DNA of 18,118 bases from Candidatus Auribacterota bacterium (GCA_023136205.1 JAGLRQ010000116.1:1-18118), one strand, 5' to 3'. Positions 1-15,396 are shown, numbered from the stretch's first letter. Program-made: numbers and translations. Notes: generated by a model from the letters alone, not told the origin.

Positions 1-927
1 AAAAGACTTTACGCGGAAATATCCCGATCTATAGGTTTTTACAGAATACAGTCCGGCGGGTCGGCGCTGGAACGCCTGATATTTTCAGGTGGAACAAGCC
101 AGCTTACCAACATCAGAGAATATTTTCTTAAAAAGCTCAATATCAGAACGGAAATGGTGGAACCTTTTAGCCAGCTGGAAATTGATCCTTATCTGGGCCT
201 TGAAGAACTGGCTTCTTTAAAGCACCTCTTCGCGGAAGCTATAGGGCTTGCGCTTAGAAAAGTTCACAAATGTGCCATCCATGTTAATTTGATCCCGAGA
301 AAAATAGCCCGGCAGAGAGAAATTAATAAACGCAAAGGATATATTATTTTATCTGCCATCATGATTTATGTAATGATGGCAACGGTGGCGATTTATTCAC
401 GCGGCATTGTAATAACAACAAACGCGAACATTAAACAGTACGATCTCCTGGTACGTGAGATGAACGGGTTCAAGCATGAAATAAATCAGAAAGAGAAGAA
501 TATTAAGGGATATAAAAATGAGCTGGATTTGTATGAAAAACTGATGGATGAGAGAGTCTACTGGCTGGATTTATTACTGACGCTTGAAAAAATTACCCCG
601 GAAAATATATGGATTTCCAAACTAATGCCGAAGAGCTCTTACAAAAGTTCCAAAACATTGGCGCCCTCTGTTTCGAGAAGGAGCGCAAGGGGCCGCAAAA
701 CAACAAAGAGTGTTGATTCTTTGGCGGAAGACGGGAAAGAGATCCTTCTTCTCGTCGCGAATACTACAGGTGTTTATGACGATGTTTATAAGTATTTCAA
801 AAAGTTAAAAGATTCAGGTTATTTTGTTGAGGATTCTGATACGAAAATTGACAAGGCAGAAAAACCTGTTCTGGGAATAAGAAAATTCTATTTCGAGCTT
901 AAGCTTAAAAAGGAAATTCCCAAATGA
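1..927 (+). CDS. Type IV pilus assembly protein: PilM C-terminal end fused in frame to PilN (5' partial, ORF open to the window edge)
   Basis: Frame 1 has no stop from nt 1 to the TGA at 925-927. The ATG at 154 in the ORF track is therefore an internal Met. nt 1-264 translate to KRLYAEISRSIGFY..LIFSGGTSQLTNIREYF..VEPF..AEAIGLALRKV, which matches the conserved C-terminal end of actin-like PilM (GGGA..L, NPF, A.GLALR). From about nt 277 the sequence reads HVNLIPRKIARQRE (the PilN INLLP motif). It is followed by a TM helix (GYIILSAIMIYVMMATVAIY), a coiled coil and an alpha/beta C-domain. Confidence 0.8.
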   Translation, partial: KRLYAEISRSIGFYRIQSGGSALERLIFSGGTSQLTNIREYFLKKLNIRTEMVEPFSQLEIDPYLGLEELASLKHLFAEAIGLALRKVHKCAIHVNLIPRKIARQREINKRKGYIILSAIMIYVMMATVAIYSRGIVITTNANIKQYDLLVREMNGFKHEINQKEKNIKGYKNELDLYEKLMDERVYWLDLLLTLEKITPENIWISKLMPKSSYKSSKTLAPSVSRRSARGRKTTKSVDSLAEDGKEILLLVANTTGVYDDVYKYFKKLKDSGYFVEDSDTKIDKAEKPVLGIRKFYFELKLKKEIPK

Positions 928-1682
928 TAGAGATTAAAAAAGATATTACTCTGTATATAACACTGGGGGTTTTAGCGGTTTTGCTGGTTGTTTTTGTGTT
1001 TATCCTGCGCGAGGCTTTATCCTCAAAATCCGACGCGGAGTCTGAACTTCAGCAGAAGATAGCAGAAAACAAAACCCTTTTTCGGGATGCCTCCGTGCCT
1101 TCCGTAATTACAGTTTCCGCGCTTAAGAAAGAGGAGAATCGTATCAGGGCTCAGAAAAACAGTATATATAACCTTCTTATTGACGCGGATACGAAAGAAG
1201 ATGAAGATATGGAGTATCCTTCGCCCGTAGAATTTAAGGATAAGCTGCTTTCCTATCAAACCAGGCTGGTTAACAGGGCCGATGCAAACGGCGTGAAGTT
1301 GCCCGGGACCCTTGGTTTTGAAGAATATGAAGGCGGAGACCTGCCCAGTATGAAGGATATCCCTCTTTTGATACGGCAAATGAAGATAATTGAAAAACTG
1401 GTAAATCTGTTTATCGATAGCCGTGTACAGCTTGTGGAAAAAATAGAGAGGGAGGAGACTAAAATATCCGAATGCAGGCACATTGATGGAATTTGCACGG
1501 TCTTGAACTTTAGCCTTGAAATGACTTGTCAAACGCCCGCACTTATAAAGTTTATGGGGGGGCTTGAATTTTTGAATAGCTTTATAATTATAAAAAATAT
1601 GGGAATAGAAGCGGATAAGATAAATAAAGTAAAAATGTTCATAAAAGCAGTAGACTTTAGAAAAGAAAATGAAAATTCCTAA
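924..1682 (+). CDS. pilO: PilO-like (GspM-like) bitopic inner-membrane pilus alignment protein
   Basis: The start shares an ATGA overlap with the upstream stop (924-927), and AAGGA lies 9 nt upstream. The protein has an N-terminal TM helix (ITLGVLAVLLVVFVFIL) and a coiled coil. Its C-terminal ferredoxin-like segment (FSLEMTCQTPALIKFMGGLEFLNSFIIIKNMGIE) fits the PilO pattern G.Y..l..Fl..L. The gene sits directly after PilN. Similarity is at the architecture and motif level only. Confidence 0.6.
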   Translation: MIEIKKDITLYITLGVLAVLLVVFVFILREALSSKSDAESELQQKIAENKTLFRDASVPSVITVSALKKEENRIRAQKNSIYNLLIDADTKEDEDMEYPSPVEFKDKLLSYQTRLVNRADANGVKLPGTLGFEEYEGGDLPSMKDIPLLIRQMKIIEKLVNLFIDSRVQLVEKIEREETKISECRHIDGICTVLNFSLEMTCQTPALIKFMGGLEFLNSFIIIKNMGIEADKINKVKMFIKAVDFRKENENS

Positions 1683-3276
1683 AATACCAAAGTTGAATTT
1701 TTCAGGGTTTGCGAAACCAAAGATTTTGGGGGGGATTGTAAAAAATCTTGAAAAGATTGTTTTTTTGATCCTTGAGGCTATATGGCTTGTTATGCTGGTA
1801 ACCTGCCTTATTAAACTTTACACGAATAATGTCAGGGCAAAACCTATTAGAGTAGCAGGAGGAGGTATTTTAAAGGAAGGGATAGAAGTAGATTTAAAGA
1901 AATATGAAGAAATTGAAAAAAGAATTAAGAAATTGAAAGAGGGACATGGAGGCTTGGACTTAAAAATCACGAAAGATATTTTTTGCAGGGAAGAAATAGA
2001 GATAGATCCCGTCATAGAGGAAATGGTAGTGGACAGTGACAAAGATGGTATGCCTGATGAATGGGAAAAGATGTATGGATTAAACTTAAGAAAAGCTTCC
2101 GATGCTGATGAGGATAAGGATGTTGACGGATACACAAACCTTGAAGAATTTGAAGCCGGAACGGATCCAACCAATCCTAACAGCAATCCCGGTGACATAG
2201 AATTTTTGTTAAGGAGATATACTCTGAAAGCTATTTCCAGGGAAACGGTGTCGCTTATTTTCATGGGATACACGCAGTGGAAACCCGAGTATCTTGATCT
2301 GCAGATAAACTGGCAGAACATGAGTTTTTTTCCAAGAATCTGGAGGGTAAGTGAAGATAATCCGGATATATATGAAGGTTTCCATATTACTGAAGAACGA
2401 TATAAGGAAGAGCTTGAAGGTAAAATAAGTGTTGGGAAACCAAGTATTAATTCCAGCAGTATTAATAAAATCCGGGCAATTCCTGAACTTGATCACAGCA
2501 TTGTTCAGGCTATAATAAATAGCAGGCAGAAAAGTATTGTAAAGCATATTTCAGATCTGTTAGAGTTTATTCAGTTGACTCCGGAGGAGCTGACGGTTGT
2601 TCATGATAAAGTTGCCGCGGAGGTTAATGTTAATAATTGTTCCGAGAATGAATTGGCCGAATTTTTTGGGATTTCCGCGAGTAACGCGAAAAAGGTAGTT
2701 GCGTATCGCGGGGAAAAAGGGTATTATAAAAACTTGAAAGAATTTCTGAGAGTTGCTGATGTTCCAACCTCACGACTTAAAGAGATTAAAGATATTCTTG
2801 TCGCAAAGCTTGATATTAATTCCGCGAACAGGAAAGATATAATTAAGTTCTTTGAAGATGAACGGTTAGCTGACGCGATATTGTTTTACAGGGAAGTGCA
2901 GGGACTTTTCAAAGATAAATATGATGTAGTTTCGCGTGGGAGGATTCAGGGATACTGGGTTATTTCATGTGAGGTCAAGATCAGGGAACTTCCGCCAAAA
3001 CCCGGGAGGCCCTATGGCCAAAAGATAAACGAGTCGGAAACGGTAATTCGGATGAGGGGCAGCGACCCTGTACTACTTCAATTTAAGAAAGTTACACAGG
3101 GCAAAGAACTTTTCGCGCGTGTTTACGATAAGACTTTAAATAAAGATGTTATGTGGAATGCCGGAACGGTAATTGGAAGCGATAAATCAAAATTTGAAAT
3201 TGTAGAAATAAACAAAAATGAAGTTGTCTTAAGCAAAAGAGGCGACAAATATCTGTTAAAATATAGCGGTAAATAA
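1669..3276 (+). CDS. Membrane-anchored PilP-position protein with a TSP3-like Ca-binding motif, three ComEA-like HhH modules and a PilP/GspC-HR-like C-terminal domain
   Basis: The gene overlaps the pilO-like gene by 14 nt. A TM helix lies at about aa 30-52. Residues 121-172 read DSDKDGMPDEWEKMYGLNLRKASDADEDKDVDGYTNLEEFEAGTDPTNPNS. Residues 259-422 hold three tandem units that resemble ComEA (IN.A...EL..LPGIG...A..II.YR...G.F.s.edL). The best one is VNVNNCSENELAEFFGISASNAKKVVAYRGEKGYYKNLKEFLRV. The C-terminus (GTVIGSDKSKFEIVEINKNEVVLSKRGDKYLLKY) resembles the PilP/GspC HR beta-domain consensus. Confidence 0.6.
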   Translation: MKIPKIPKLNFSGFAKPKILGGIVKNLEKIVFLILEAIWLVMLVTCLIKLYTNNVRAKPIRVAGGGILKEGIEVDLKKYEEIEKRIKKLKEGHGGLDLKITKDIFCREEIEIDPVIEEMVVDSDKDGMPDEWEKMYGLNLRKASDADEDKDVDGYTNLEEFEAGTDPTNPNSNPGDIEFLLRRYTLKAISRETVSLIFMGYTQWKPEYLDLQINWQNMSFFPRIWRVSEDNPDIYEGFHITEERYKEELEGKISVGKPSINSSSINKIRAIPELDHSIVQAIINSRQKSIVKHISDLLEFIQLTPEELTVVHDKVAAEVNVNNCSENELAEFFGISASNAKKVVAYRGEKGYYKNLKEFLRVADVPTSRLKEIKDILVAKLDINSANRKDIIKFFEDERLADAILFYREVQGLFKDKYDVVSRGRIQGYWVISCEVKIRELPPKPGRPYGQKINESETVIRMRGSDPVLLQFKKVTQGKELFARVYDKTLNKDVMWNAGTVIGSDKSKFEIVEINKNEVVLSKRGDKYLLKYSGK

Positions 3277-3293
3277 ATGAAAGGGGTAAAAGT

Positions 3294-5759
3294 ATGTGTG
3301 TTAAAAAAATCTTAAAAATTTGTGCGCTTTATATATCGGTTACTGTTTTTTGTTCACTGGCAACTTTTTCTCTCGCGGTAGATTCTGAGATAGAAACAGC
3401 GTTAAGACAGCAGGAGAGAAAAATTGCTGCCGAACACGTTGTGGAAGACGGTATAGCGTTTTACAAAGCAGGGGATTTTGCTGCTGCCCGGAAAGAGTTT
3501 CTGAAAGTTAAGGAACTTGATCCCGGCAATGAAGCCGCGGAAAAATATCTTGCTAAGATAGAAAATAAATTGCTTAAAGCCCGGAAAAAAATGCTGAAGG
3601 ATAAGGTTAGAGCCGGGGTTTCCAATTATAAAGCGAAGAATTATGAACAGGCTGCTGAACTTTTCATGGAAGTGCTTGAAATTGACCCCAACCATTCCAA
3701 AGCACAGAAATATCTAGCGAAATGTGATACAAAGCTGGGGATTTTAGAAAAGAATATTTCCTCCGAAAAATATTCGGGTGTTACAACAAGAGAGACAAAC
3801 GAACTTTATGAAAGAGGCAGGCTTCTTTACGATAACGCGCGGTATGATGAGGCAAGAGAGATATTTTCAGAGATTATCGCGTATAGCCCCAATCATGTTC
3901 CCGCTTCAAGATACATTGATTCCTGTAACGCGAGGTTACAGGAAATAGCTGATGAAGACCAGGAAGTCTTAAATAAAGAAGAGATGATAACTCTTAGAAA
4001 GTCCTGGTTTCCCCAAAAAGAATTTGAAAAGGAAGAGATTCCTGCTGACATTATTGACCTGCCGGATCTAACAATAACGGCGGCAAGGGAAAAAATAGAG
4101 AAGGAACTTGACCAGATAATACCTTTGATAGATTTTACAAACGCGCATTTGAGAGACCTTATAACCTCTCTTTCCGGTATGAGCGGTGTCAATATTATTC
4201 TTGATGAGAGTGTTTTTCCCGTCGTGGGAGCACCTGAAGACGCAGTTCTGGAAGGGGATATAACCGCAGAAGAACTGCTTGAAGACGCGGACGCGGCGGA
4301 ATTGGCTGAACTTGAAGCGCTTCTCTCTGAGGAAATCGGTGAAACGGACTCATCAGGCGTTATTGCTCCTTCCGTTGAATCCGGCGTCGGTGGAGAGGTG
4401 ATTGATGACACAATTACGATATCTTTGAGGAATATTCCCTTAAGAGAGGCTCTTAGATATATTGTTAAAGCAAAAGGGCTTAAATACAGGATTGATGATT
4501 ATGCTGTTGTAATATCCACCCCTGAAAACCTGATAGATGAAGAAATGGAAACAAGATATTACCATCTTAAAAGCGGTATAGGCGCTTTCACTGCCTTTAT
4601 AAGAAAAGATGCTGGGGGGGAAGCAGGGGCAACAACAGTATTGGGAGGAAATGTTTCGACTGAAACGATATCTATAAAAGATGTTCTTGAGCAGAGCGGT
4701 GTTCCCTGGCCGGAAGGGAGTAAGATATTCCTGCATGAAAGAACCAGTACCCTTATAGCCAGAAACAGCCCGACAAACCTCTCGATAATAGAAGATGTGT
4801 TAAGAGTTCTTGATGTAACAGCCCTTCAGATAGAGATACAGGCTAAATTTGTTGACCTTAATGAAACAGATGCTTCTGAACTCGGGCTTGAGTGGATGTT
4901 GACATCTGACTGGGGTATAAAAAGAGATAAAAGCGGCCGTGGTATTACAATGAATAAGGATTCATTGTTCCCAACCCTTATGCCGGATGGTGGTCCGGGT
5001 TTTGGACGATATCCTGGAGGTGCTTCAACCAGCTATGGTTTAACGCGGGGCCTGAGGTTTTTGGAGGATGGTACAACAGGTAATCCCATTGGAAATATTT
5101 TAAGTATTGGTGGAATTTTAACTGAACCTGAGTTTCAGGTTGTCCTGCACGCTCTTTCTCGAAGTCAGGCTGCTGACATTTTATCCTCTCCAAGAATTGT
5201 TACGCTGAATAACCAGGAAGCAACCATTCGCATTGTTGATGAACTGATTTATCCAACTGAATATGAAATAACACCTCCGACGTGGAGGGTTGACCCTGAT
5301 GACGGAACTATAACGATGGTGAGTTACGCGGCGGTGGCACCCGGTGGTTTTGAGACAAGGGAAATTGGGGTAATTCTTAAGGTAATTCCCAATGTCGGTG
5401 CTGACAATAAAACAATTAATCTTGCAATAATCCCTGAAGTTAGTGAATTAAGTTCCTGGATAACGGATTATGATATTATATATGATTTGCAGAGAATAGC
5501 GTTACCCCAGCCTTTTATTTCAACAAGGCTGGTTACAACCAATGTTATAATAAATGATGGTGAAACGATTGTTCTCGGAGGGCTCATGAATGAGACAGCA
5601 ATAGAAAAGGATGATAAGATTCCTATACTGGGAGATATTCCGTTTTTGGGAAGGCTGTTTAGAACCGAATCCGAAAGCAATGAAAAGAGGAATCTTATGA
5701 TATTTGTGACGGCAAATCTTCTTACACCTACAGGTGAAGCCTTTGCAATCGGAGAATAA
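3294..5759 (+). CDS. pilQ: Outer-membrane secretin (PilQ/GspD family) with an N-terminal TPR region, paralogue 1
   Basis: AAGGGG lies 7 nt upstream of the ATG. The signal peptide ends at ..FSLA/VDSE. There are three TPR-like units, each ending in DP.N..A..YL.K. An N0/STN-like domain follows (IDFTNAHLRDLITSLSGMSGVNIILDE ... ITISLRNIPLREALRYIVKAKGLKYRIDDYAVVIS). The classic secretin C-domain is present (LSSPRIVTLNNQEATIRIV, GVILKVIPNV, INDGETIVLGGL, KIPILGDIPFLGRLFR, LMIFVTANLL). Confidence 0.9.
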   Translation: MCVKKILKICALYISVTVFCSLATFSLAVDSEIETALRQQERKIAAEHVVEDGIAFYKAGDFAAARKEFLKVKELDPGNEAAEKYLAKIENKLLKARKKMLKDKVRAGVSNYKAKNYEQAAELFMEVLEIDPNHSKAQKYLAKCDTKLGILEKNISSEKYSGVTTRETNELYERGRLLYDNARYDEAREIFSEIIAYSPNHVPASRYIDSCNARLQEIADEDQEVLNKEEMITLRKSWFPQKEFEKEEIPADIIDLPDLTITAAREKIEKELDQIIPLIDFTNAHLRDLITSLSGMSGVNIILDESVFPVVGAPEDAVLEGDITAEELLEDADAAELAELEALLSEEIGETDSSGVIAPSVESGVGGEVIDDTITISLRNIPLREALRYIVKAKGLKYRIDDYAVVISTPENLIDEEMETRYYHLKSGIGAFTAFIRKDAGGEAGATTVLGGNVSTETISIKDVLEQSGVPWPEGSKIFLHERTSTLIARNSPTNLSIIEDVLRVLDVTALQIEIQAKFVDLNETDASELGLEWMLTSDWGIKRDKSGRGITMNKDSLFPTLMPDGGPGFGRYPGGASTSYGLTRGLRFLEDGTTGNPIGNILSIGGILTEPEFQVVLHALSRSQAADILSSPRIVTLNNQEATIRIVDELIYPTEYEITPPTWRVDPDDGTITMVSYAAVAPGGFETREIGVILKVIPNVGADNKTINLAIIPEVSELSSWITDYDIIYDLQRIALPQPFISTRLVTTNVIINDGETIVLGGLMNETAIEKDDKIPILGDIPFLGRLFRTESESNEKRNLMIFVTANLLTPTGEAFAIGE

Positions 5760-5788
5760 ATTTTTTGAAGAAAGGGAGAAATAAAGTT

Positions 5789-8143
5789 ATGAGAAGGATA
5801 ACAGCAGGGAATATAAAAACCGCGTTAATAATCATGGGTACACTGTTTTTCTTTTGTGTTTCTGTACCGTTGTCCGCTCAGGTTGACAGCGGGTCAAAAC
5901 AGAATGCTGAAAAATTCGCGAAAGAGTATGCGAAACAGGTTGAGATTGAGCGCCAGGTAAATAAAATCGAGGTGCGAAGGCATATTGGTACGGCGGAAGA
6001 ATATGTGTCCAGGGGTATGTTTGTTGAGGCTAAAATTGAATATGAGAAAGTCCTTGAAATTGACCCGGATAACAAAACAGCCGGAAGCCGGATTTTGACC
6101 CTGAAAAAGAAAATAGTGAAAGCCAGAGCAAAAGAGCTGAATGCGAAGGTTCGTGGAGGGATTAACGCGTATAACGAGGCCAGGTATGCCGCGTCTGTTG
6201 AGATGTTTCAGGATGTGCTGAATGAAGACCCTAGAAATAAGAAAGCTATGAAATATCTCGCGAAGGCCAAAGCAGCCCTTTTCGCTGAAGGCAGTTCGGT
6301 AAGTGTAGTAAAGGAAGTAATTGTGGAAAACGGAAGCCTGGTTCTGGACAACATTGGGAAAGCTAAACAGCTTTATACAGAAGGGGTTCTTTATTATAAG
6401 AATGGAAGGTATCCCGAGGCTGTTCCGTTTTTTAAGAAAGCCCTGGAGCTGAATCCCGATCATGCCCAGGCACGCAGGTATCTTGAGCGGTCACTTGCCG
6501 GTGAGCGAGAAAATACTGATGATGTATGGGATGACACAAAGGATGCTTATATTGAACAGGTTGATAAACACTGGCTTACGGAAAAAAGGAAACTTATCAA
6601 AGAAGAACCTGATAAGGATGTTTTTGAATCAGCTCCGAAAAAGGACTCCGCGGCCAAATTAAACATAGAGAAAAATCTCCGGCAGGTTATTCCTTCCATT
6701 AAACTTAAAGATGCTAATCTGAAATACGTGGTAAAACACCTTTCAGGTTTAAGCGGGATTAATATTCTTCTTGACCCCGCGGCAAGGGAAATAGAAAACC
6801 AGAACATAACAATATCGCTTACCGATATTCCCCTGCTCGAAGCTATAAAATATATTGTCCGCGCGAAGGGGCTGGTGTATAGAATTGACGATTATGCTGT
6901 AGTTATTACAACAAGCGAAAGGCTTTTTGACGAAGAAATGGAAACGAGATATTACCAGCTTGCCTCAGGTGTAACAAGCGGTTCTGTTTTTAGCACAAGC
7001 TTCGCGGAAACCGCGGGTGAAACAACGACTATTGGAACGGCTGCGGCTTTTGAATCTACCACGACAATTCAGGATGTTCTTGAAGAATCAGGTGTTCCTT
7101 TTCCTGAAGGAAGCAAGATATTTCTTGATAAAAGAACCGGTATACTTATAGTAAGAAACACCCCTTCAAATCTTAGTATTATTGAAGAAGTCCTACAGAA
7201 ATTAGATGTGGTTCCTTACCAGATTGAGATTGAAGCCAGATTTGTTGAATTAACTGAAACGACTTATAAAGAGCTCGGAATTGAGTGGATGTTAACCAAC
7301 CAGTTGTCAATAGGCAATGATTATGCTCTAAACCCCCTTCCATGGATTGATTCTACCGGAAAAGCAGGGGATGGACAGTACGGGGATACTTGGGGTAGAG
7401 AAGGAATAACCCATGGTGTAAGATTTCTGGAAGATACCGTAGGCGAACCTCGGGGAAATATAATGAGATTGTCAGCAGTACTGGGATCATTAGAATTTTC
7501 GGCAATTTTACATGCTCTTGCTCAGAAGGGGGATTCAAATGTGCTCTCAGCCCCAAAGGTTACCACTGTAAACAACAGCCAGGCGCAGATTAAAATTGTA
7601 AGTGAATTGATATATCCTACAGAGTTTGAGATTACACCTCCTTCGACAAATGAATGGGGAAGCATTGTTACGCCTGCTGTTGTTATTCCGGGCACATTTG
7701 AAACCAGGGAAGTTGGAATTTTACTCAGTGTTGTTCCTACTGTGGGGGCTGATAAGAAAACTATAACACTTGCGATTATTCCTGAAGTCAGCAGTTTGAC
7801 CTCTTGGATAAACTATGGAACTGATCGTTTGCCTGCCAGACAGCCGCAGTTTGAAACACGAAACCTGAGCACAAGTGTTGTGATAAATGACGGGGACACG
7901 GTTGTAATGGGCGGCCTTATAAAGGAAACTACAACAAACACTGAGGATAAGATTCCTATATTAGGAGATATCCCTTTTATAGGAAGGTTGTTTAGGAATG
8001 ATTCAAATGAATCCGTGAAGAAAAACCTTGTTATTTTTGTTACTGCTAAACTTGTTACGCCTCGCGGTGACCTTCTGAAGGAATTTATGGCAGGCGGCTC
8101 CGGTACCGGTATTGAGTCGAAATCTCTGATTAGTATTGATTAA
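5789..8143 (+). CDS. pilQ: Outer-membrane secretin (PilQ/GspD family) with an N-terminal TPR region, paralogue 2
   Basis: The architecture matches paralogue 1. It has a signal peptide (..VPLSA/QVDS), three TPR-like units and an N0/STN-like domain (IKLKDANLKYVVKHLSGLSGINILLD ... ITISLTDIPLLEAIKYIVRAKGLVYRIDDYAVVIT). The secretin domain is also present (LSAPKVTTVNNSQAQIKIV, GILLSVVPTV, INDGDTVVMGGL, KIPILGDIPFIGRLFR, LVIFVTAKLV). I prefer the ATG at 5789, with GGGAG at 5774-5778, over the TTG at 5765 in the ORF track. Confidence 0.9.
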   Translation: MRRITAGNIKTALIIMGTLFFFCVSVPLSAQVDSGSKQNAEKFAKEYAKQVEIERQVNKIEVRRHIGTAEEYVSRGMFVEAKIEYEKVLEIDPDNKTAGSRILTLKKKIVKARAKELNAKVRGGINAYNEARYAASVEMFQDVLNEDPRNKKAMKYLAKAKAALFAEGSSVSVVKEVIVENGSLVLDNIGKAKQLYTEGVLYYKNGRYPEAVPFFKKALELNPDHAQARRYLERSLAGERENTDDVWDDTKDAYIEQVDKHWLTEKRKLIKEEPDKDVFESAPKKDSAAKLNIEKNLRQVIPSIKLKDANLKYVVKHLSGLSGINILLDPAAREIENQNITISLTDIPLLEAIKYIVRAKGLVYRIDDYAVVITTSERLFDEEMETRYYQLASGVTSGSVFSTSFAETAGETTTIGTAAAFESTTTIQDVLEESGVPFPEGSKIFLDKRTGILIVRNTPSNLSIIEEVLQKLDVVPYQIEIEARFVELTETTYKELGIEWMLTNQLSIGNDYALNPLPWIDSTGKAGDGQYGDTWGREGITHGVRFLEDTVGEPRGNIMRLSAVLGSLEFSAILHALAQKGDSNVLSAPKVTTVNNSQAQIKIVSELIYPTEFEITPPSTNEWGSIVTPAVVIPGTFETREVGILLSVVPTVGADKKTITLAIIPEVSSLTSWINYGTDRLPARQPQFETRNLSTSVVINDGDTVVMGGLIKETTTNTEDKIPILGDIPFIGRLFRNDSNESVKKNLVIFVTAKLVTPRGDLLKEFMAGGSGTGIESKSLISID

Positions 8144-8225: not shown

Positions 8226-10862
8226 ATGTCGAAAAAAACCTTTTTAATGATTGATGGTATGTCATTTGTTTACAGGGCGTACTATGCCATCAGGCAGTTA
8301 ACAACTTCTTCGGGATTTCCTACCAACGCTATTTTTGGTTTTATAAACATGCTTGAAAAACTTATTAACGATTATAGCCCTGATTATATGGCGGCGGCAT
8401 TTGATACGAAAGAACCTACTTTCAGGCATGAGAAATACAAGGATTATAAATCACAGAGAAAGCCTATTCCTGAAGATTTGATACCGCAGTTAGGCCCGAT
8501 TAAAGATATTATAAGAGCTTTTAATATACAGCTTTTTGAATGTCCCGGTTACGAAGCTGATGATATTTTAGCAACGCTTGCCGCCAAAACCGGCGCCGGA
8601 GCTATTAAGTCTATTATCGCCACCGGTGATAAGGATATGTTTCAGATTATTGACGGAGAGAATATATTTGTTCTTTCCCCCGGGGGAGGGGGTAAGGAAA
8701 ATATTCTGTACGATCCTGAGAGGGTAGAACAGAAATTTGGGGTAAAACCTGACAAAATTGTTGATATGCTCGCGCTTGCGGGGGATTCCGCGGATAACAT
8801 TTCAGGGGTTCCCGGCATAGGTTTAAAAACGGCTAAAGCACTTTTGGATGAGTTTGGTTCACTTGAAAATATATTATCTGAAACTGACAAAATTAAAAGC
8901 CCGGCCCGCAGGCACGCTATAAAGGAACATGCCGATAAAGCAAGATTTTACAGGGAACTGGTTACGGTAAATACACGGGCTCCTGTTGATTTTAGAATAG
9001 AAGAATGTATGCGCAAAACTCCTGATTTAAATAAATTGCTCGAACTTTTTAGAAAGTTTGAGTTCACAAAACTTGCATACAAGTACAGCGCGAAAGAACA
9101 AATTTCTGAAGACGCTGTAATTATTAATAATATAAAGGAAGCAGAAAAGTTCTTTAAAAAACTTGAAGGCTCGGAAAGACTTTATTTCAAAACGATTTTT
9201 GATAGTGGAGAACCTTTTGGTGATGTGAATATTGTCGGCATTGCCGCGATGGTTGATGGGGTAAAACCCGCTTTTATTTCTACGGAAGGTATTGGATTAA
9301 AGGAATTAATTCGTTTGATAGGCCCGGTTTTGCGGGATCCTGAGATTAAGAAAGCGGGATATGGACTGAAAAATGAAATAGTTAATTTTAAAAAGCTTGG
9401 AATAGATATCGAAGGCATAGAATTTGATGCTGAAATTGCCGCTTATATATTAAATCCTTCAAGAAAAGATTATTCTCCTGAATCAATTATATCTCTTTAT
9501 TCAAATATGATTATACTCCCGGTAGAGAGAAAGAAGGAAGAGCGGGATTTATGGCTTAAACAGGCTGCTTCAAATCTCTGCGGGTGTGTAAAAGCCCTTC
9601 CCGGAGTATGCAAGAGCCTTTTGGCGGAAATTAAGGAAAAAGCGGTGGTTAAACTTTTTAAGGAAGTGGAAATGGGCCTTTTATATGTACTGGCGGAAAT
9701 GGAGTGTGAAGGAGTAAAAATAGATGTAAAAACATTGACCAGGCTTTCCGGTGAATTTCACCGCGGGATTAGTAAAATTGAAGAGGAAGTTTATAATATA
9801 GCAGGGGAAAAGTTTAACCTGAATTCTTCAAAGCAGCTGGGAAAGATTTTGTTCGAAAAACTGAAACTTCCCGTTATTAAGAAAACTAAAACGGGATATT
9901 CTACGGATGATGAGGTTTTAGAAGTTTTGAAAAACAAACATCTTCTTGCCGGACTTATAAAAAACTACAGGACGCTTTCCAAACTAATTTCCACATATGT
10001 GGACTCCATGCCGTTGTTAATTTCTAAAAAGACGGGCAGGCTTCATACAACATTTAATCAGACTGTAACTTCTACGGGACGCCTTAGTTCAAGTAATCCA
10101 AACCTCCAGAATATCCCCATAAAAACCGAAGAAGGAAGGAAAGTGAGGGAAGCTTTTGTTCCAAGGGAGGGCTGGTTTTTGATTTCTGCGGATTATTCAC
10201 AGATAGAACTCAGGATTCTTGCCCACCTTTCAAAGGATGCCGGACTTGTCCGGGCATTTAAACAAGGAGAGGATATTCATACTTTTACGGCTGCCCTTAT
10301 AAACGGCATTGAACTTGAAAATGTAACAGAAGAAATGAGAAATGCCGCAAAAGCCGTTAATTTCGGCATTATTTACGGGATCAGTTCCTTTGGACTCGCG
10401 AAAAACACAGGTGTAGATAAAAAAACGGCAGGGGAGTTTATTAAGAGTTATTTTGAGAGGTATCCCGGAGTAAAAGTATTTATTGACGGGCTTATAAAGG
10501 AAGCCAGAGAAAAAGGATATGTGAGCACCATATTTAACAGGAGAAGGTACATAAATGAGTTTAAGTCCTCAAATGCTGTGGAAAGAAATTTTGCCCAAAG
10601 GGCAGCGGTGAATACTGCAATCCAGGGTTCAGCGGCAGATATTATTAAGATTGCAATGCTTAAGGTAAATGAAAAACTTAAAGAAGAGTCTTTTCAGGCG
10701 AGGATGATTTTGCAGGTTCATGATGAGCTGCTGCTTGAGGTACCTCCGCTGGAACTTAATCTTTTGGAAGAACAAATCCGCGGCATTATGGAAAATGTTG
10801 TTGCTCTGGATGTTCCTTTGAAGGTAAAGGTAAATAGTGGTAAAAGCTGGGCGGAAATTTAG
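8226..10862 (+). CDS. polA: DNA polymerase I
   Basis: 5' nuclease motifs are intact (IDGMSFVYRAYYA, GYEADDILATLA, TGDKDMFQI, GDSADNISGVPGIGLKTA). Polymerase motif A (DYSQIELRILAH), motif B (RNAAKAVNFGIIYG) and motif C (QVHDELLLE) are present. The central 3'-5' exonuclease-like domain has degenerate catalytic motifs. Confidence 0.97.
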   Translation: MSKKTFLMIDGMSFVYRAYYAIRQLTTSSGFPTNAIFGFINMLEKLINDYSPDYMAAAFDTKEPTFRHEKYKDYKSQRKPIPEDLIPQLGPIKDIIRAFNIQLFECPGYEADDILATLAAKTGAGAIKSIIATGDKDMFQIIDGENIFVLSPGGGGKENILYDPERVEQKFGVKPDKIVDMLALAGDSADNISGVPGIGLKTAKALLDEFGSLENILSETDKIKSPARRHAIKEHADKARFYRELVTVNTRAPVDFRIEECMRKTPDLNKLLELFRKFEFTKLAYKYSAKEQISEDAVIINNIKEAEKFFKKLEGSERLYFKTIFDSGEPFGDVNIVGIAAMVDGVKPAFISTEGIGLKELIRLIGPVLRDPEIKKAGYGLKNEIVNFKKLGIDIEGIEFDAEIAAYILNPSRKDYSPESIISLYSNMIILPVERKKEERDLWLKQAASNLCGCVKALPGVCKSLLAEIKEKAVVKLFKEVEMGLLYVLAEMECEGVKIDVKTLTRLSGEFHRGISKIEEEVYNIAGEKFNLNSSKQLGKILFEKLKLPVIKKTKTGYSTDDEVLEVLKNKHLLAGLIKNYRTLSKLISTYVDSMPLLISKKTGRLHTTFNQTVTSTGRLSSSNPNLQNIPIKTEEGRKVREAFVPREGWFLISADYSQIELRILAHLSKDAGLVRAFKQGEDIHTFTAALINGIELENVTEEMRNAAKAVNFGIIYGISSFGLAKNTGVDKKTAGEFIKSYFERYPGVKVFIDGLIKEAREKGYVSTIFNRRRYINEFKSSNAVERNFAQRAAVNTAIQGSAADIIKIAMLKVNEKLKEESFQARMILQVHDELLLEVPPLELNLLEEQIRGIMENVVALDVPLKVKVNSGKSWAEI

Positions 10863-10879
10863 AAAAACAAAAAAAGAAA

Positions 10880-10983
10880 TTAACCACAAATAACACGAAT
10901 TTTCACAAATTAAAAAAAATACTAGATTATTTATTCGTGCAGATTTCCCTCCAGAATGGGACAGGTGTGTGATTAGTGGTTAA
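10880..10983. repeat. 17-nt imperfect inverted repeat (15/17) bracketing ~70 nt in the polA-downstream spacer
   Basis: TTAACCACAAATAACAC (10880-10896) is complementary to GTGTGATTAGTGGTTAA (10967-10983), with mismatches at 2 positions. An inner inverted repeat pairs CACGAAT (10894-10900) with ATTCGTG (10933-10939). CACAAAT occurs as a direct repeat at 10885 and 10904. Confidence 0.5.
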
Positions 10984-11060
10984 AAAATTAGATACTGGAA
11001 TTTAGATCATTAGAATTCGTTTCGGATTTCGTGCTTCGAATTTAGTATTTTTAACTTCAG

Positions 11061-13103
11061 GTGACCGATATTAAAACAATTAAAACAAACAAAATTATCA
11101 TTAGCGCGATTACAGTCATTGCTCTTCTTTCCATCTATTGCGGGAGTGTCTGGTTGAGGCTGGAGATAAGGAAGCATCACGAAGAGCAGTATGGAAGAGA
11201 ACTGCCGTTTACGCTTGAAAGCGCGTTGCTTTTTAAATATGCTTCAATGCTTTCAAAAGGCGAAGCCATACCTGATATTGATAAGAGCGCTCAGTATCCT
11301 GAAGGGCTGAAGGTAAAGGAAAGGCTTTCAATAGGCGGCGAAATTTTACCCGCGTTTATTTACAGGGTTGTAAAACCGGCTATTTCATTTCAAGGATTTA
11401 TGAGGATTTTTTTCCCCTTGTTTTATTCAATTGGCATATTTGGTATTTATCTGTCGGCGAAAGAACTTTCGGGCACAAAAATCGGGGGGCTTATTGCTGC
11501 CGCGATATACGCCTTTTCGGCCGCTTCAGTTGTACGTTCAACAGGCCTGGAGTTTTCCAGGGAAAACTTCGCGCTGCCGTTTATCTGTTTTCATCTGGCT
11601 TTTGTTTCGATATATGTACGCCGCCGCTCTGTTTTTGCTGTAGTAGGATCCGCGCTGACCCTGGGAGCGGCACAGTGTGTATGGGATCTTACCCAGATAT
11701 ATATTGTTTTTATGGCTGTTATTATCATCGGGTATTTTTTGATTAATGGGAGCATCGGTAAGTACAGGGCGATACTTTTTTACAATACTCTTGCCCTGGT
11801 ATTTGCCGGGCTGGTTTCTCCATATTTAAGATGGCATTCTTTCTTAAGTTCATATATTATGGGGTCCCTCTATGTAACCTTAATTCTGTCGATTTTTCAG
11901 CCCCGAATAAAATTTCTTGCAAAAAAATATTATCTTGCTATAATATGGATAAGTTTGTACGTTATCTCCTGTTTTATATCTTATTATGGCTCAGAATACG
12001 GCGATGTTTATTCAAATTTTATATCCCTGCTTTTTGGAAAATTAAGATACTTTAATAAAATACCGCTTGATTCATCGAAATTAAACTGGGATGTTCGGGT
12101 GTTATGGACACCTGCTCTTGATTCGGTTAGCTTAAAGTCCTTTTTAAATTATTTTCATGCTCTGCTAATTGTCTTTTTTCTCGGTTTTGCGGGAATGTTA
12201 TTAAGTAGAATCAGAAGCCGCAATCCTTCTCTTTATCTGATGGTTCCGATGGTTTTGTTCTTCTGCTTCTTGTGTTTCTTTTTTAGAAGGATGTTTGTGT
12301 TCTTTGTAATACCCTTTTCTGTTGTCGCGGGGTTTGTTCCTCTGATATTCAGAAAAAATCGGTTTTTCAGGGCTCTGATTATAGTGGTTGTGTTTTTCTT
12401 TATATTTTTTGAGGGAGAAAGGTGTTATGCCCGGAGGAACCTGTGGCGCCGTGATGTAAGGTATCTGGAGCTGGAAGATATTTCGATCTGGGCAAGAGAA
12501 TCAACGCCTGAAGGCTCAGTTGTCCTGGCAAACTTTACTCTTTCTCCTGTAATTAATTATTATGCCGGAAGGAGTATTGTTATACATCCTAAATTTGAGG
12601 ATCCCGCGCTGCGGGAAAAAGTATTTGAATACGGCAGGGCTATCTTCAGCGTGGAGGAAAGTGATTTTATTGATTTCTGTGATAAATACGGGGTTAACTA
12701 TTTTATTTTTTCAAGAGGGACTTACTCGACGGTTTCTCCGTATTCAATGAGATATATATGGAATGTAAAAAGCGAGGTGCCCTCCAGCGCGGCGGCAAAA
12801 TTTAAAAGATACGGAGATGCCCCATACAGGTTTATTCCCCTTTACTACAATGGAAAATACAGGGCATACTACTTTGTTTCCGCGGGGGAAATGGGACTTA
12901 TTAATGAGTATATGGCCGAGTCTGACAGGCTGTTTCGAGAAGGTGATAAGGCTTCTGCCGTAAAGATGCTGGAAAAGGTTTTGAAGATTTATCCGCTTTA
13001 TAAAGAAGCCTGTTTCCGGTTGGGCAAATTGTATATGGAAGATGGCAGGGTTAGAGAAGGGCTTAACCTGCTCAAAAACGCGAAAGAAATGTTGTTTGAA
13101 TGA
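11061..13103 (+). CDS. Polytopic GT-C fold membrane protein, STT3/PglB/AglB-like oligosaccharyltransferase homologue with WWDYG replaced and a C-terminal TPR
   Basis: The GTG at 11061 is the first start after an in-frame TAA (11052-11054), and no clear SD is present. There are more than 10 hydrophobic helices. Loop motifs resemble STT3: LPFTLESALLFKYA (EL1 acidic motif) and VRSTGLEFSRENFALPF (compare RSVAGSYDNEGIAIF). The soluble C-domain aligns by eye with eukaryotic STT3: WARESTPEGSVVLA-NFTLS-PVINYYAGRSIVI versus WLR.[28 protein letters not shown]. A second stretch, GRAIFSVEESDFIDFCDKYGVNYFIF, aligns with [25 protein letters not shown]. The last ~70 aa are TPR-like. Confidence 0.55.
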   Translation: MTDIKTIKTNKIIISAITVIALLSIYCGSVWLRLEIRKHHEEQYGRELPFTLESALLFKYASMLSKGEAIPDIDKSAQYPEGLKVKERLSIGGEILPAFIYRVVKPAISFQGFMRIFFPLFYSIGIFGIYLSAKELSGTKIGGLIAAAIYAFSAASVVRSTGLEFSRENFALPFICFHLAFVSIYVRRRSVFAVVGSALTLGAAQCVWDLTQIYIVFMAVIIIGYFLINGSIGKYRAILFYNTLALVFAGLVSPYLRWHSFLSSYIMGSLYVTLILSIFQPRIKFLAKKYYLAIIWISLYVISCFISYYGSEYGDVYSNFISLLFGKLRYFNKIPLDSSKLNWDVRVLWTPALDSVSLKSFLNYFHALLIVFFLGFAGMLLSRIRSRNPSLYLMVPMVLFFCFLCFFFRRMFVFFVIPFSVVAGFVPLIFRKNRFFRALIIVVVFFFIFFEGERCYARRNLWRRDVRYLELEDISIWARESTPEGSVVLANFTLSPVINYYAGRSIVIHPKFEDPALREKVFEYGRAIFSVEESDFIDFCDKYGVNYFIFSRGTYSTVSPYSMRYIWNVKSEVPSSAAAKFKRYGDAPYRFIPLYYNGKYRAYYFVSAGEMGLINEYMAESDRLFREGDKASAVKMLEKVLKIYPLYKEACFRLGKLYMEDGRVREGLNLLKNAKEMLFE

Positions 13104-13678
13104 AAATCGCAATAACCGGCGGAATATGTTCGGGGAAAAGCACTGTTCGCGCCATTCTTGAAAAGCGCGGTATTGAAATTATTGATGCCGATGACCTTGC
13201 GAGAGAATCCGCGGAATTGAGTAAGGAGAGAATATTACAGCATTTTGGCCCTGGATATTTTGATGTAAAGGGGAAATTAAACCGGGCAAAACTTGCGGAG
13301 AAAATTTTTAGTTCTCCTGAAGAAAAAAAAGCTCTGGAAAGAATATTGCATCCTGTAATAATTTCTCTCATAAAACAGGGAATGGAATGTTTTGAAAAAG
13401 ACGAAAAAAAATATATAGTAATAGCTCCGCTGATTTTTGAAACGGATATTGGCGAATTATTTGATTATGTCATTTTGCTTTCATGCGGGCAGCAGCAGCA
13501 GATAAAAAGGCTTACGGAAAGAGAGCAAATAGCGAAAGAGAAGGCTTTTGAGAGGATAAGAGTTCAGTTTTCTGACGAGGAAAAGGGTAAAAAGGCTGAC
13601 TTTATAATAGATACTTCCTGCAGTATTAGTGAAACAGAAGAAGTAATAATAAAACTTTTAGAAAAAATAGGTTTTTAA
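13100..13678 (+). CDS. coaE: Dephospho-CoA kinase
   Basis: The start shares an ATGA overlap with the upstream stop (13100-13103). The N-terminus MKIAITGGICSGKSTV carries the P-loop. The protein is 192 aa, and LHP and DFIIDTS-type motifs typical of CoaE are present. Confidence 0.9.
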   Translation: MKIAITGGICSGKSTVRAILEKRGIEIIDADDLARESAELSKERILQHFGPGYFDVKGKLNRAKLAEKIFSSPEEKKALERILHPVIISLIKQGMECFEKDEKKYIVIAPLIFETDIGELFDYVILLSCGQQQQIKRLTEREQIAKEKAFERIRVQFSDEEKGKKADFIIDTSCSISETEEVIIKLLEKIGF

Positions 13679-13689
13679 GGAGGAATTAA

Positions 13690-15075
13690 ATGGCAAAAAC
13701 GAGAACGAGTGAAGTACAAAAAGAAGTTAAAAACGCGAACTCTGTAAAACCGCCTGTTGTAAGAGACGCAAAAATTGTTGACACAGGAACTAAAAATGAA
13801 GGGATTGCCGCGGTAATAGATGCGGATGTAAATATCGTGACTCTCCAAAAAATGACTGTTGCCCGGTTAAATGCTATTGCGAAACATTTGAAAATAGCGG
13901 CAACGGGGACGTTGAAAAAACCCCAGCTTATATTTGAGATATTAAAAGCAAAAGCGCGGGCCAACGGCCTTATGTTTGGTGAAGGTATCCTGGAAATTCT
14001 CCCGGACAGTTTCGGGTTTTTACGGTCTCCGAACTATAATTACCTTCCCTGTCCCGAAGATATATATGTTTCTCCTTCACAGATAAGAAGGTTCGATTTA
14101 CAGACCGGGGCCATGGTTTCAGGCCAGATACGGCCTCCAAAAGATAAGGAGAAATATTTTGCCCTTCTCAAGGTCGAAGCGGTCAATCATGAAGATCCGG
14201 ATAAAGCAAAGGACAAAATCCTTTTTGATAATCTTACGCCTTTGTATCCTCAGGAGAGATTTCTGATTGAAACCGAGCCGGACAGTATATCTATGAGAGT
14301 GATGGATCTATTGACGCCTATAGGCAAGGGCCAGAGAGGCCTTATTGTAGCACCTCCCAGGACCGGAAAGACAATGCTGCTTCAGGCTATCGCGAACGGT
14401 ATAACAAAGAATACCCCGGATGCGAAGCTTATAGTGATGCTTATAGATGAAAGGCCTGAAGAGGTGACGGATATGGAGAGGACTGTAAATGGGGAAGTTA
14501 TAAGTTCAACGTTTGATGAGCCGCCTGAAAGGCATATTCAGATAGCTGAAATTGTTATAGAAAAGGCCAAGAGGATGGTTGAGCATAAGGAGGATGTAGT
14601 CATTCTCCTGGATAGTCTTACCAGGCTGGCGCGCGCGTATAACACGGTTCAGCCTCACAGCGGAAGAATTCTTTCGGGCGGGCTTGATTCTACTGCTCTT
14701 CATAAACCCAAGAGATTTTTTGGCGCGGCGAGAAACATAGAAGAGGGAGGAAGCCTTACTATTATTGCTACAGCTCTTGTTGATACAGGGAGCAAGATGG
14801 ATGAGGTTATATTTGAAGAGTTTAAGGGAACCGGAAACATGGAACTTCATTTGGACAGAAGACTGGTTGATAAGAGGGTGTTTCCTGCTATAGACATTGA
14901 AAAATCCGGGACAAGGAAAGAGGAGCTTCTTTTTCACGCGGATGAGCTGAAGCGCATATGGCTCTTGAGAAAAGCCCTGCATGGAATGAATCCTGTTGAA
15001 TGCATGGAGCTTATAATAAACAAAATCAAAAAGACGAAGAGCAACGCGGAATTCCTGATGTCGATAAACGGCTGA
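13690..15075 (+). CDS. rho: Transcription termination factor Rho
   Basis: A strong SD (AAGGAGG, 13677-13683) lies 6 nt upstream. Similarity to E. coli Rho is near-collinear: [59 protein letters not shown] (Walker A), [54 protein letters not shown]. About 45-48 extra residues precede the Rho_N domain. Confidence 0.97.
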
Positions 15076-15084
15076 TATTCCCGG

Positions 15085-15115
15085 TTGCATAAATTCTTGA
15101 CAGATAGAGTATAAT
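15085..15115 (+). promoter_or_regulatory. Candidate sigma70-type promoter for rpmE-prfA (TTGCAT-N19-TATAAT)
   Basis: A perfect TATAAT sits at 15110-15115 in the 105-nt rho-rpmE spacer. The only -35-like hexamer at usable spacing is TTGCAT (15085-15090), and its 19-nt spacer is longer than optimal. The perfect TTGACA at 15097-15102 is only 7 nt from the -10 and so is not a partner. Confidence 0.25.
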
Positions 15116-15180
15116 TACATTTTGAATTTATTAGTGGGATTTTTGTGAGATAATTTAATTAGCAGAGAGGAAAATATACA

Positions 15181-15393
15181 ATGAAAGATAAAATCCATCC
15201 AAAATACGCGGAATCTACTGTTACCTGTGCTTGTGGAGAGGTAATCCATACCCGTTCCACAAAGCCGGAGATTCATGTGGGCATTTGTTCAAAATGCCAT
15301 CCGTTTTTTACAGGTAAACAGAAGCTCGTGGACTCAGCGGGCCGTATAGAGAAGTTTATGAGGAAGTACGGCAAAAAGAAGGCCGGAGAGTAA
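15181..15393 (+). CDS. rpmE: 50S ribosomal protein L31, Zn-ribbon (Cys-containing) type
   Basis: The sequence [37 protein letters not shown] is nearly identical in pattern to E. coli L31, and all four Zn-ligand Cys are retained. A GAGAGGA SD lies about 9 nt upstream. Confidence 0.95.
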
Positions 15394-15396
15394 TCC

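Follow-up and report, generated by a model that had tools for sequence, protein, structure and literature searches.

The first 8,143 nucleotides (nt) of a stretch of DNA from Candidatus Auribacterota bacterium (GCA_023136205.1 JAGLRQ010000116.1:1-18118; 18,118 nt at its full length, hereafter the window) encode an envelope module that, judged by homology, is probably the Auribacterota orthologue of the pilus-like cassette of the Planctomycetes-Verrucomicrobia-Chlamydiae (PVC) superphylum, represented in Akkermansia muciniphila by Amuc_1102-1098 (the MUL2 locus plus PilQ). The base architecture of this module is ordinary for the superphylum and already catalogued, and only two features go beyond the catalogued layout, namely a helix-hairpin-helix (HhH) insertion in the third protein and a second secretin. 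An earlier reading of the same DNA (the original prediction) had proposed that the combined architecture was undescribed as a type IV pilus, type II secretion system (T2SS) or competence subtype, and that four of its five components were rewired. Neither proposal held, as the four families possess dedicated NCBIfam models and recur across PVC phyla, while two of the four supposed rewirings, i.e. the fusion of PilM to PilN and the secretin bearing tetratricopeptide repeats (TPRs), are the norm of the family in this superphylum and hence no anomalies. The layout is therefore that of a standard PVC-type cluster, the very outcome that the prediction had itself named as fatal to its claim of novelty.

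Assignment of the module to the Amuc-type cassettes

All four NCBIfam Amuc models (the Amuc_1101, Amuc_1100, Amuc_1099 and Amuc_1098 families) are matched by the four gene types of the window, each of which lies on the plus strand. The 3' part of a fused PilM-PilN gene (1-927; 308 codons, cut by the 5' end of the window) matches Amuc_1101_fam (NF045709) with an E value of 6e-44 over amino acids (aa) 2-233, corresponding to model positions 264-496 of 608, and does not reach the equivalog cut-off of 650 bits, a shortfall to be expected from a distantly related protein of which only 308 aa are present. The second gene (924-1682), encoding a bitopic protein of 252 aa in the PilO/GspM slot, matches Amuc_1100_fam (NF038287; E 1e-16, 61 bits against a cut-off of 180), and the third (1669-3276), encoding a connector protein of 535 aa, matches Amuc_1099_fam (NF042425; E 3e-12, 46.9 bits against a cut-off of 50). 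Secretin A (3294-5759; 821 aa) and secretin B (5789-8143; 784 aa) match Amuc_1098_fam (NF042912) over nearly their full length with E values of 1e-97 and 1e-104, respectively, below the 750-bit cut-off, the match of secretin A covering model positions 31-803 of 805. Since all of these scores fall below the respective equivalog cut-offs, the window proteins are to be regarded as distant relatives rather than equivalogs of the named families.

Complete cassettes are present on contigs of relatives whose HhH proteins are 91% and 55% identical to that of the window. In these, the gene order is Amuc_1102-like (PF28178), PilM_2/FtsA (578-580 aa), Amuc_1100 (PF28028), the HhH protein, two secretins, polA, a Dpy19-like gene and coaE, where PF28178 (Amuc_1102) and PF28028 (Amuc_1100) are precomputed domain annotations. 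The Amuc_1102-family gene at the head of the cassette, a position outside the window, which begins inside pilMN, also matches NF042424 in the relatives (E 5e-8 and 1.5e-6, below the cut-off of 55).

The Amuc_1098-1102 proteins are intensively studied owing to the interest in Akkermansia, and Amuc_1100 is a candidate therapeutic; natural variants in which a single slot is altered are thus informative for the Amuc-type system, whose mechanism is still unclear. The five-gene Akkermansia cluster was described in 2017 and its proteins are abundant envelope components (PMC5332112), while in Akkermansiaceae the MUL2 locus (amuc_1099-1102) is adjoined by a secretin, coaE and rho (ISME J 2026, PMC13174399). 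According to second-hand accounts, the Akkermansia locus is reportedly required for mucin uptake, and the system has been linked with pili-like structures (PMC5332112, PMC13174399). The window module shares with the Akkermansia cluster the same families in the same order, the near-invariant DxDxDGMPDxWE motif of the thrombospondin type 3 (TSP3) kind and the TPR-secretin, and it shares with both this cluster and the PVC homologues the same flanks, consisting of polA or a 5'-3' exonuclease gene, a Dpy19-like glycosyltransferase gene, coaE and rho. On the other hand, the relationship is distant (in the relatives surveyed, PilMN identity is about 30-40%), the Amuc_1100-type protein of the window is shorter than the Akkermansia type (252 aa versus a model of 326 positions), and the window carries a 200-aa HhH insertion in its Amuc_1099-type protein together with a duplicated secretin.

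The five genes and their domain calls were confirmed with matches far beyond chance, and the open reading frames (ORFs) and overlaps were found where they had been predicted. The profile searches proposed as a check on the prediction matched PilM_2, HHH_3, Secretin and TPR, and not AMIN, and the slot-by-slot comparison to pilMNOPQ proved broadly right in view of the PilM_2, PilN, T2SSM_b and Secretin matches. In the first ORF, PilM_2 (E 4e-11) aligns to aa 3-87 with its last 85 profile positions; the encoded fragment starts within the PilM actin-like domain, of which it retains the final ~87 aa, and continues with a transmembrane (TM) helix at about nt 337-399 and a periplasmic PilN-like part, with some 175 further aa after the helix, and full-length orthologues of 578-580 aa carry PilM_2 and FtsA. 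Among 23 members of this family, PilM_2 is matched in all, PilN in eight (best E 1.7e-7) and T2SSL in one (E 0.009), which, together with the single reading frame, bears out at family level that PilM and PilN form one polypeptide. The PilO/GspM-like nature of the second gene is likewise upheld by its family, seven of whose 26 members match T2SSM_b (best E 7.6e-5) and one PilO. The window's own Amuc_1100-type protein has no Pfam match, because the Pfam version scanned was without PF28028 and PF28178, and a single-sequence phmmer search of the PDB with this protein retrieved nothing; the profile of the 26 second-slot proteins, through which alone Amuc_1100 was reached, matches the solved Amuc_1100 structures 6KNY, 6LAD and 6LAF with nearly complete coverage (E 2e-17).

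As read directly from the sequence, the PilMN and Amuc_1100-type genes overlap by an ATGA at 924-927. The Amuc_1100-type and connector genes overlap by 14 nt (1669-1682), the connector and secretin A are separated by 17 nt (3277-3293) that include an AGGGG-type, purine-rich ribosome-binding site, and the two secretins by 29 nt (5760-5788), again with a purine-rich ribosome-binding site (GAAAGGGAGA). The couplings claimed previously were therefore correct for the ATGA, the 14-nt overlap and the 29-nt gap, the remaining gap measuring 17 nt instead of 18. The ORF of secretin B itself begins at TTG 5765, from which the product would be 792 aa long, and its start at ATG 5789 agrees with the 784-aa orthologue in locus L001 of the 91% relative. 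A consensus terminator scan, in which promoter and terminator calls were at or below chance, revealed none within the cassette or ahead of polA, and an Rfam scan of the window gave no match.

In the connector, a TM helix (about nt 1753-1821) is joined by a linker to a Ca-binding TSP3-like motif (2020-2202), and there follows a beta-domain (2203-2349 and 2950-3273) into which the HhH block is inserted. Its TM helix, TSP3-like motif and beta-domain are common, in an alignment, to the insert-free Auribacterota homologues of loci L018, L035 and L024 (328-350 aa). The N-terminus carries this TM helix and no lipobox, and such a TM-anchored connector is GspC-like rather than PilP-like in topology. 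A homologue search with a beta-domain profile returned 10 proteins only. Full-length AlphaFold2 modelling of the 535-aa protein was unusable (predicted local distance difference test score, pLDDT, 47), and a second model (aa 174-535, from an alignment of 23 sequences) was adequate for the beta-domain only, which reached a pLDDT of 80-89. The top-probability Foldseek matches of this domain, both non-significant, were the HR domain of PulC within the PulD-PulS-PulC complex (6hcg_e; prob 0.66, root-mean-square deviation 1.8 A, 52 columns) and GspB (4wfw; prob 0.47).

Several observations weigh against the assignment to the Amuc-type cassettes and against the function that it implies. Every NCBIfam score is below its equivalog cut-off, and the Amuc_1099 model matches the connector only at the TSP3 motif (aa 96-177). 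The PilP family of Pfam has no match on the window protein and one among 23 family members at E 0.066, T2SSC has one among 23 at E 0.25, profile searches of the PDB and Pfam with the beta-domain returned nothing significant, and Foldseek retrieved 0 matches to the PDB at E <= 1e-3. A PilP/GspC-HR fold for the connector is statistically unsupported, with weak evidence from the model; of the predicted PilP/GspC-like connector with HhH modules, the HhH part stood and the fold did so only to this extent. Docking of the connector on either secretin is putative, being argued by analogy. In addition, none of the Auribacterota loci examined showed an ATPase, platform protein or prepilin peptidase gene in the vicinity of the cassette, and the function in Akkermansia is, in second-hand accounts, not mechanistically settled.

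Conservation of the cassette across PVC genomes

Fused PilMN homologues number 3,847 at E <= 1e-5, the best 120 being nearly all 510-700 aa long, and a scan of one genome per GTDB species placed PilMN relatives in at least 586 species genomes. The best 80 of these (at least 586) were taken as loci for a survey in which six-frame ORFs were searched with pieces of the window proteins. The survey recovered an Amuc_1100-like gene at 45 of the loci, an Amuc_1099-like gene at 43 and a secretin at about 60; many of the contigs break off early. Where detected, the order is PilMN, Amuc_1100-like, Amuc_1099-like (330-420 aa) and one secretin of 800-1,100 aa, and this order is the same in Verrucomicrobiota, Kiritimatiellia, Lentisphaerota and Auribacterota. 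Co-conservation of the cassette in related genomes, for which such a survey had been suggested, was in this way corroborated in four PVC phyla among the 80 loci. The gene for PolA or a 5'-3' exonuclease then follows in 38 of the 80 loci, and Dpy19-like, coaE and rho genes are found in about 16 each.

Tandem TPR-secretins and their repeated duplication

In secretin A, a signal peptide is followed by three TPR pairs (about nt 3399-3983) and by the N0/STN, Secretin_N and secretin (5151-5723) domains, and in secretin B the TPRs (about nt 5972-6499) precede domains N0 and N1 and the secretin domain (7514-8056). Both match the relevant Pfam families (A: Secretin E 9e-39, TPR_2 E 5e-15; B: Secretin E 6e-42, TPR_1 E 2e-13), and neither matches AMIN at E <= 0.1, in full agreement with the prediction of two tandem secretins bearing TPRs in place of AMIN. 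The gspD model TIGR02517 is matched at E 1e-57 to 1e-61, below the GspD cut-off. A comparable composition has been reported for Akkermansia PilQ, in which three pilotin-like TPRs precede a secretin domain and which is conserved in other Verrucomicrobia (2016, PMC4960237).

Along their entire length, secretins A and B share 40% identity. In A, the N0/STN domain contains a 63-aa acidic loop (aa 306-368, nt 4209-4397) with 18 aspartate or glutamate residues and 0 lysine or arginine residues. This loop is kept in the A orthologues, occurs in part in L024 and in L018 (first copy), and is absent from all B copies, that of the window included. The connector beta-domain of the window is basic, with net charges of +4 and +8 for its two halves. 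The paralogues thus appear to differ where the inner-membrane platform should dock, a pattern compatible with subfunctionalisation.

A single secretin ORF is found in 49 of the 80 loci, and two full-length secretins in four, all of them from Auribacterota, namely L006 and L007 of the window clade and L018 and L035; the second copy in L007 is cut by the contig end and is confirmed by L005. A secretin tree, crude in that it was built by neighbour-joining from BLOSUM distances over the C-terminal 400 aligned columns with 200 bootstrap replicates, grouped the window-clade A orthologues together (100%) and the window-clade B orthologues together (100%), and likewise both copies of L018/L035 (93.5%) and the two short secretins of L072 (100%), while groups of all first copies or of all second copies each received 0%. 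Bootstrap values bearing on a possible loss of one copy in L024 were 45% against 53%. From these groupings, it would follow that tandem secretin duplication occurred independently at least twice and probably three times, unless gene conversion mimics the pattern. In locus L072 (13194-16881), from a metagenome-assembled genome (MAG) labelled Planctomycetia, a 496-aa TPR/N0 ORF is followed by tandem short secretins of 370 and 373 aa, an arrangement that, as far as its sequence can tell, represents a third and independent way of multiplying the secretin.

A different modification is found in five Verrucomicrobiota (Limisphaerales-type) genomes, in which the secretin is split (L073 13659-16757; L078 7296-10145; L079 13866-17066; L081 12106-15284; L085 13777-17071). 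The first ORF, of 740-890 aa, ends in the middle of the secretin domain, and a separate second ORF of 206-257 aa, with its own ATG (MKIRAI...) in at least L078, carries the last ~130 residues. Because the split recurs in independent MAGs, a sequencing error is an unlikely cause.

Recurrent tandem duplication raises the possibility of heteromeric or alternative secretin channels, and in the proposed machine the second secretin would be an added channel subunit with a different N0 docking domain. A tentative alternative, which we regard as possible and clearly not as the favoured one, is that the two secretins stand for two machines or states, so that, for example, only A docks the connector while B serves another system or is a spare. 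This would accommodate the identity of only 40%, the systematic difference of the N0 docking domains (the 63-aa acidic loop in A and none in B), the 49 of 80 PVC loci that manage with a single secretin ORF, and the independent duplications of L018/L035 (93.5%) and L072 (100%). It is, however, difficult to reconcile with the co-expression suggested by the 29-nt gap, the same strand, the separate ribosome-binding site and the lack of a terminator, with the retention of both copies as orthologue pairs across the clade (100% bootstrap each), and with the completeness of the secretin domain in both. For type IV pilus systems, the literature searched yielded no description of secretins that are tandem, heteromeric or TPR-bearing, which is weak negative evidence. 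As far as these searches show, the HhH insertion in the connector and the recurrent duplication of the secretin are both undescribed.

The HhH insertion of the connector protein

In the ~200-aa insertion (2350-2949), a linker (aa 228-262) leads into three ComEA-type modules, HhH1 (aa 263-315), HhH2 (aa 316-378) and HhH3 (aa 379-427), the modules spanning nt 2455-2949. HHH_3 is matched in two stretches with E 7e-19 and 68 bits, above the cut-off of 27, and TIGR00426 (the ComEA HhH region) with E 3e-12 and 46.4 bits against a cut-off of 53.1; with ComEA in the PDB the E value is 1e-4, and the HhH block can be aligned to ComEA structures 8DFK and 8DSS. The prediction of a 535-aa protein with ComEA-type HhH modules was therefore accurate as a statement of homology. 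The extra residues (aa 228-427) lie between a strand ending in '...INW....F' and a strand starting with 'GY.V', and in the AlphaFold2 model both flanks of the insert fall in one beta-domain.

The insertion appears, on the genomes compared, to be confined to one small clade of Auribacterota. Among the 80 loci, the HhH block is present in L006 and L007 only, and the alignment shows it to be absent from L018, L035 and L024. Full-length connector homologues with the insert amount to six entries of a single clade, including 'Candidatus Aureabacteria', UBA6266 and the MAG SRR21487744. A phmmer search with aa 181-535 against 1.84 billion representatives yielded one full-length match, the same-clade protein P0005, the other 440 matching the HhH repeat only, and none of 149 HhH-repeat proteins has the N- or C-terminal domains of the connector. 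An origin of the block by copying from the neighbouring giant GspK-like pseudopilin was ruled out (BLASTP E 0.1). With respect to the 55% relatives, HhH3 is 80-82% identical and the best segment of the protein, HhH1 is 49-55% and HhH2 44-46% identical, and the overall identity is 55-56%; the insert is conserved as much as the rest of the protein and is under purifying selection.

The h-G-h-G motif gives HhH domains their contacts with the DNA backbone. In the alignment to 8DFK and 8DSS, the GVG/GIG and GIG positions of ComEA read GIS and DVP in the window, while modules 1 and 3 have PELD, IQLT and FEDE at the hairpin positions. The G-h-G hairpins are therefore lost at no fewer than five of the six positions, and the lone 'GIS' reads 'EVS' or 'KVS' in the 55% relatives. 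PF00633, the model of the canonical HhH motif, is also unmatched in the connector; with this model, the nearest tandem-HHH_3 proteins reach E values of 1e-22 to 1e-52. The isoelectric point (pI) of the block is 4.9-7.8 and carries little weight, as the aligned segment of the Bacillus-type ComEA is, by a hand count, likewise not basic. Loss of the G-h-G motif makes DNA binding by the HhH block doubtful, and with such degenerate hairpins the ComEA-type label does not yet support a function in competence. In comparison with ComEA, HHH_3-type (HhH)2 modules alignable with 8DFK and 8DSS and a periplasmic location are common to both, whereas the window has three modules that are inserted in the beta-domain of another protein and in which the G-h-G hairpins are largely lost; lacking the canonical hairpins, the connector does not appear to be a ComEA.

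There is about an even chance, in our judgement of these sequences, that the HhH block, with its degenerate hairpins, serves as a structural or spacer element or as an adaptor that faces the cargo or the filament. Binding of DNA or another polyanion by the block is judged less likely than this adaptor role, at roughly one chance in three. The more specific proposal of a DNA-uptake pilus, for competence or DNA feeding, in which the block is a ComEA built into the connector that binds periplasmic double-stranded DNA and ratchets it inwards, we consider rather unlikely. It draws on the HHH_3 (E 7e-19) and TIGR00426 (E 3e-12) matches and the alignment to ComEA 8DFK/8DSS, on the periplasmic position of the block within a machine resembling a type IV pilus, on the purifying selection on the insert, on the location of dprA and comM ~3-4 kb upstream in the 91% relative L001, and on the prediction that Auribacterota catabolise DNA in microcompartments (PMC9324843). 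Against it stand the loss of the defining G-h-G hairpins at a minimum of five of six positions and the missing PF00633 match, the low conservation of the most ComEA-like module (44-46%, the lowest value among the three), the pI of 4.9-7.8 (a weak argument), and the absence of the dprA/comM adjacency in the 55% relative and other Auribacterota. A more unlikely proposition still is that the insert functions in the periplasm as a receptor for DNA or another polyanion on a secretin-docking connector and that both secretins contribute to a single channel, either mixed or two-tier. If true, the module would be an analogue of ComEA integrated into a machine and the Amuc_1099 slot would be the cargo-specificity module of PVC Amuc-type machines, which would support the view of such machines, including that of Akkermansia, as polymer-import devices. 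In L001 (836-3618), dprA, a comM-like gene of the Mg-chelatase family and yraN (UPF0102) are situated directly upstream of the cassette. The dprA/comM adjacency was rejected as weak evidence of competence, as it is not conserved: at this position, L018 and L024 carry housekeeping genes and UBA6266 carries GspH/I/J/K-like and GspG-like genes.

Proposed machine and comparison with related systems

Gene content and homologies allow a machine to be proposed by reference to the parts of the type IVa pilus (T4aP) and T2SS. The cytoplasmic PilM, one TM helix and the PilN-like periplasmic part (GspL topology) would pair with the Amuc_1100-type, PilO/GspM-like protein, the two together forming an inner-membrane alignment platform. 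The TM-anchored Amuc_1099-type connector would span the periplasm, with its C-terminal beta-domain putatively docking, by homology, on the secretin N0, and the TPRs of the secretin itself may serve as a built-in pilotin-like module, as proposed for Akkermansia PilQ (PMC4960237). The filament would be formed from GspG-K-like pilins, and the ATPases would be encoded elsewhere. Located in a loop of the connector beta-domain, the HhH block is expected to sit at the periplasmic base of the secretin, which suggests that the third slot faces the cargo or filament. As the Akkermansia system is, from second-hand accounts, needed for mucin uptake, polymer handling may be considered the likeliest general role. 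In UBA6266, a 55% relative, a GspH/I/J/K-like minor pseudopilin set lies upstream and is followed by three GspG-like pilin genes (L007 333-8074); this set shows weak matches to proteins D, B, C and A of the 'Verru_Chthon cassette' and includes a GspK-like protein of 1,309 aa.

Relative to the T4aP PilMNOPQ complex, the module has in common the order of functional slots and the PilM_2 and PilN homology, whereas here PilM is joined to PilN in one protein, the Amuc_1100 family fills the PilO slot, the PilP slot is occupied by a TM-anchored protein that is not a lipoprotein and has no significant PilP match, and TPRs take the place of AMIN in two secretins. In its sequences the module lacks the separate PilM and PilN, the PilP lipoprotein and the AMIN domains of a canonical PilMNOPQ system.

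The assignment to the Amuc-type cassettes is also preferred to that of a protein-secreting T2SS (GspL-GspM-GspC-GspD-GspD, with the HhH block replacing the PDZ domain of GspC as substrate-recognition module), which is improbable in spite of a fitting topology (fused L-like protein, M-like partner and TM-anchored C-like connector), the T2SSM_b (7/26) and gspD TIGR02517 (E 1e-57 to 1e-61) matches, the non-significant local fold matches to PulC HR and GspB and the GspG/H/I/J/K-like genes adjoining the cassette in UBA6266, as PilM_2 (23/23) is far stronger than T2SSL (1/23, E 0.009), the secretins do not reach the GspD cut-off, a PDZ domain is missing, no GspE or GspF gene is adjacent, and the homologous Akkermansia system has been tied, partly in second-hand accounts, to pili-like structures and mucin import and not export (PMC5332112, PMC13174399). 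Features common to the module and the T2SS include the GspL-topology fusion, the M-like partner, the TM-anchored connector, the N0 plus N1 secretin and the GspG-K-like pseudopilins near one relative; the first protein is, however, PilM-type by sequence, PDZ is lacking, the secretin bears TPRs and GspE and GspF are unlinked, the module being only topologically T2SS-like.

Flanking genes

The genes 3' of the cassette in the window are polA, a Dpy19-like gene, coaE, rho, prfA and prmC. The part from polA to rho (8226-15075), i.e. polA or a gene for a ~300-aa 5'-3' exonuclease, the Dpy19-like gene, coaE and rho, is found as the 3' flank in four PVC phyla, and downstream synteny was recorded in loci L015, L018, L024-L028, L031, L035, L045, L050, L055, L065, L075, L077 and L082. 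Since the downstream genes of the window match those of its relatives, the whole window follows this PVC arrangement, in which an envelope machine and housekeeping genes display an unusually deep synteny.

The Dpy19-like protein (11061-13103, plus strand) is polytopic and 680 aa long, matches the Pfam family Dpy19 at E 3e-28, above the cut-off, and has a C-terminal TPR; its gene accompanies the cassette in 16 or more of the 80 loci. Eukaryotic DPY19 enzymes C-mannosylate tryptophan in thrombospondin repeats, and a functional link between the Dpy19-like protein and the DGMPDxWE motif of the Amuc_1099 thrombospondin-type-3-like region would be pure speculation. Further downstream, rho is separated from the first start codon of prfA by ~320 nt (15076-15396), a segment that has no Rfam match and that may reflect a mis-placed prfA start.

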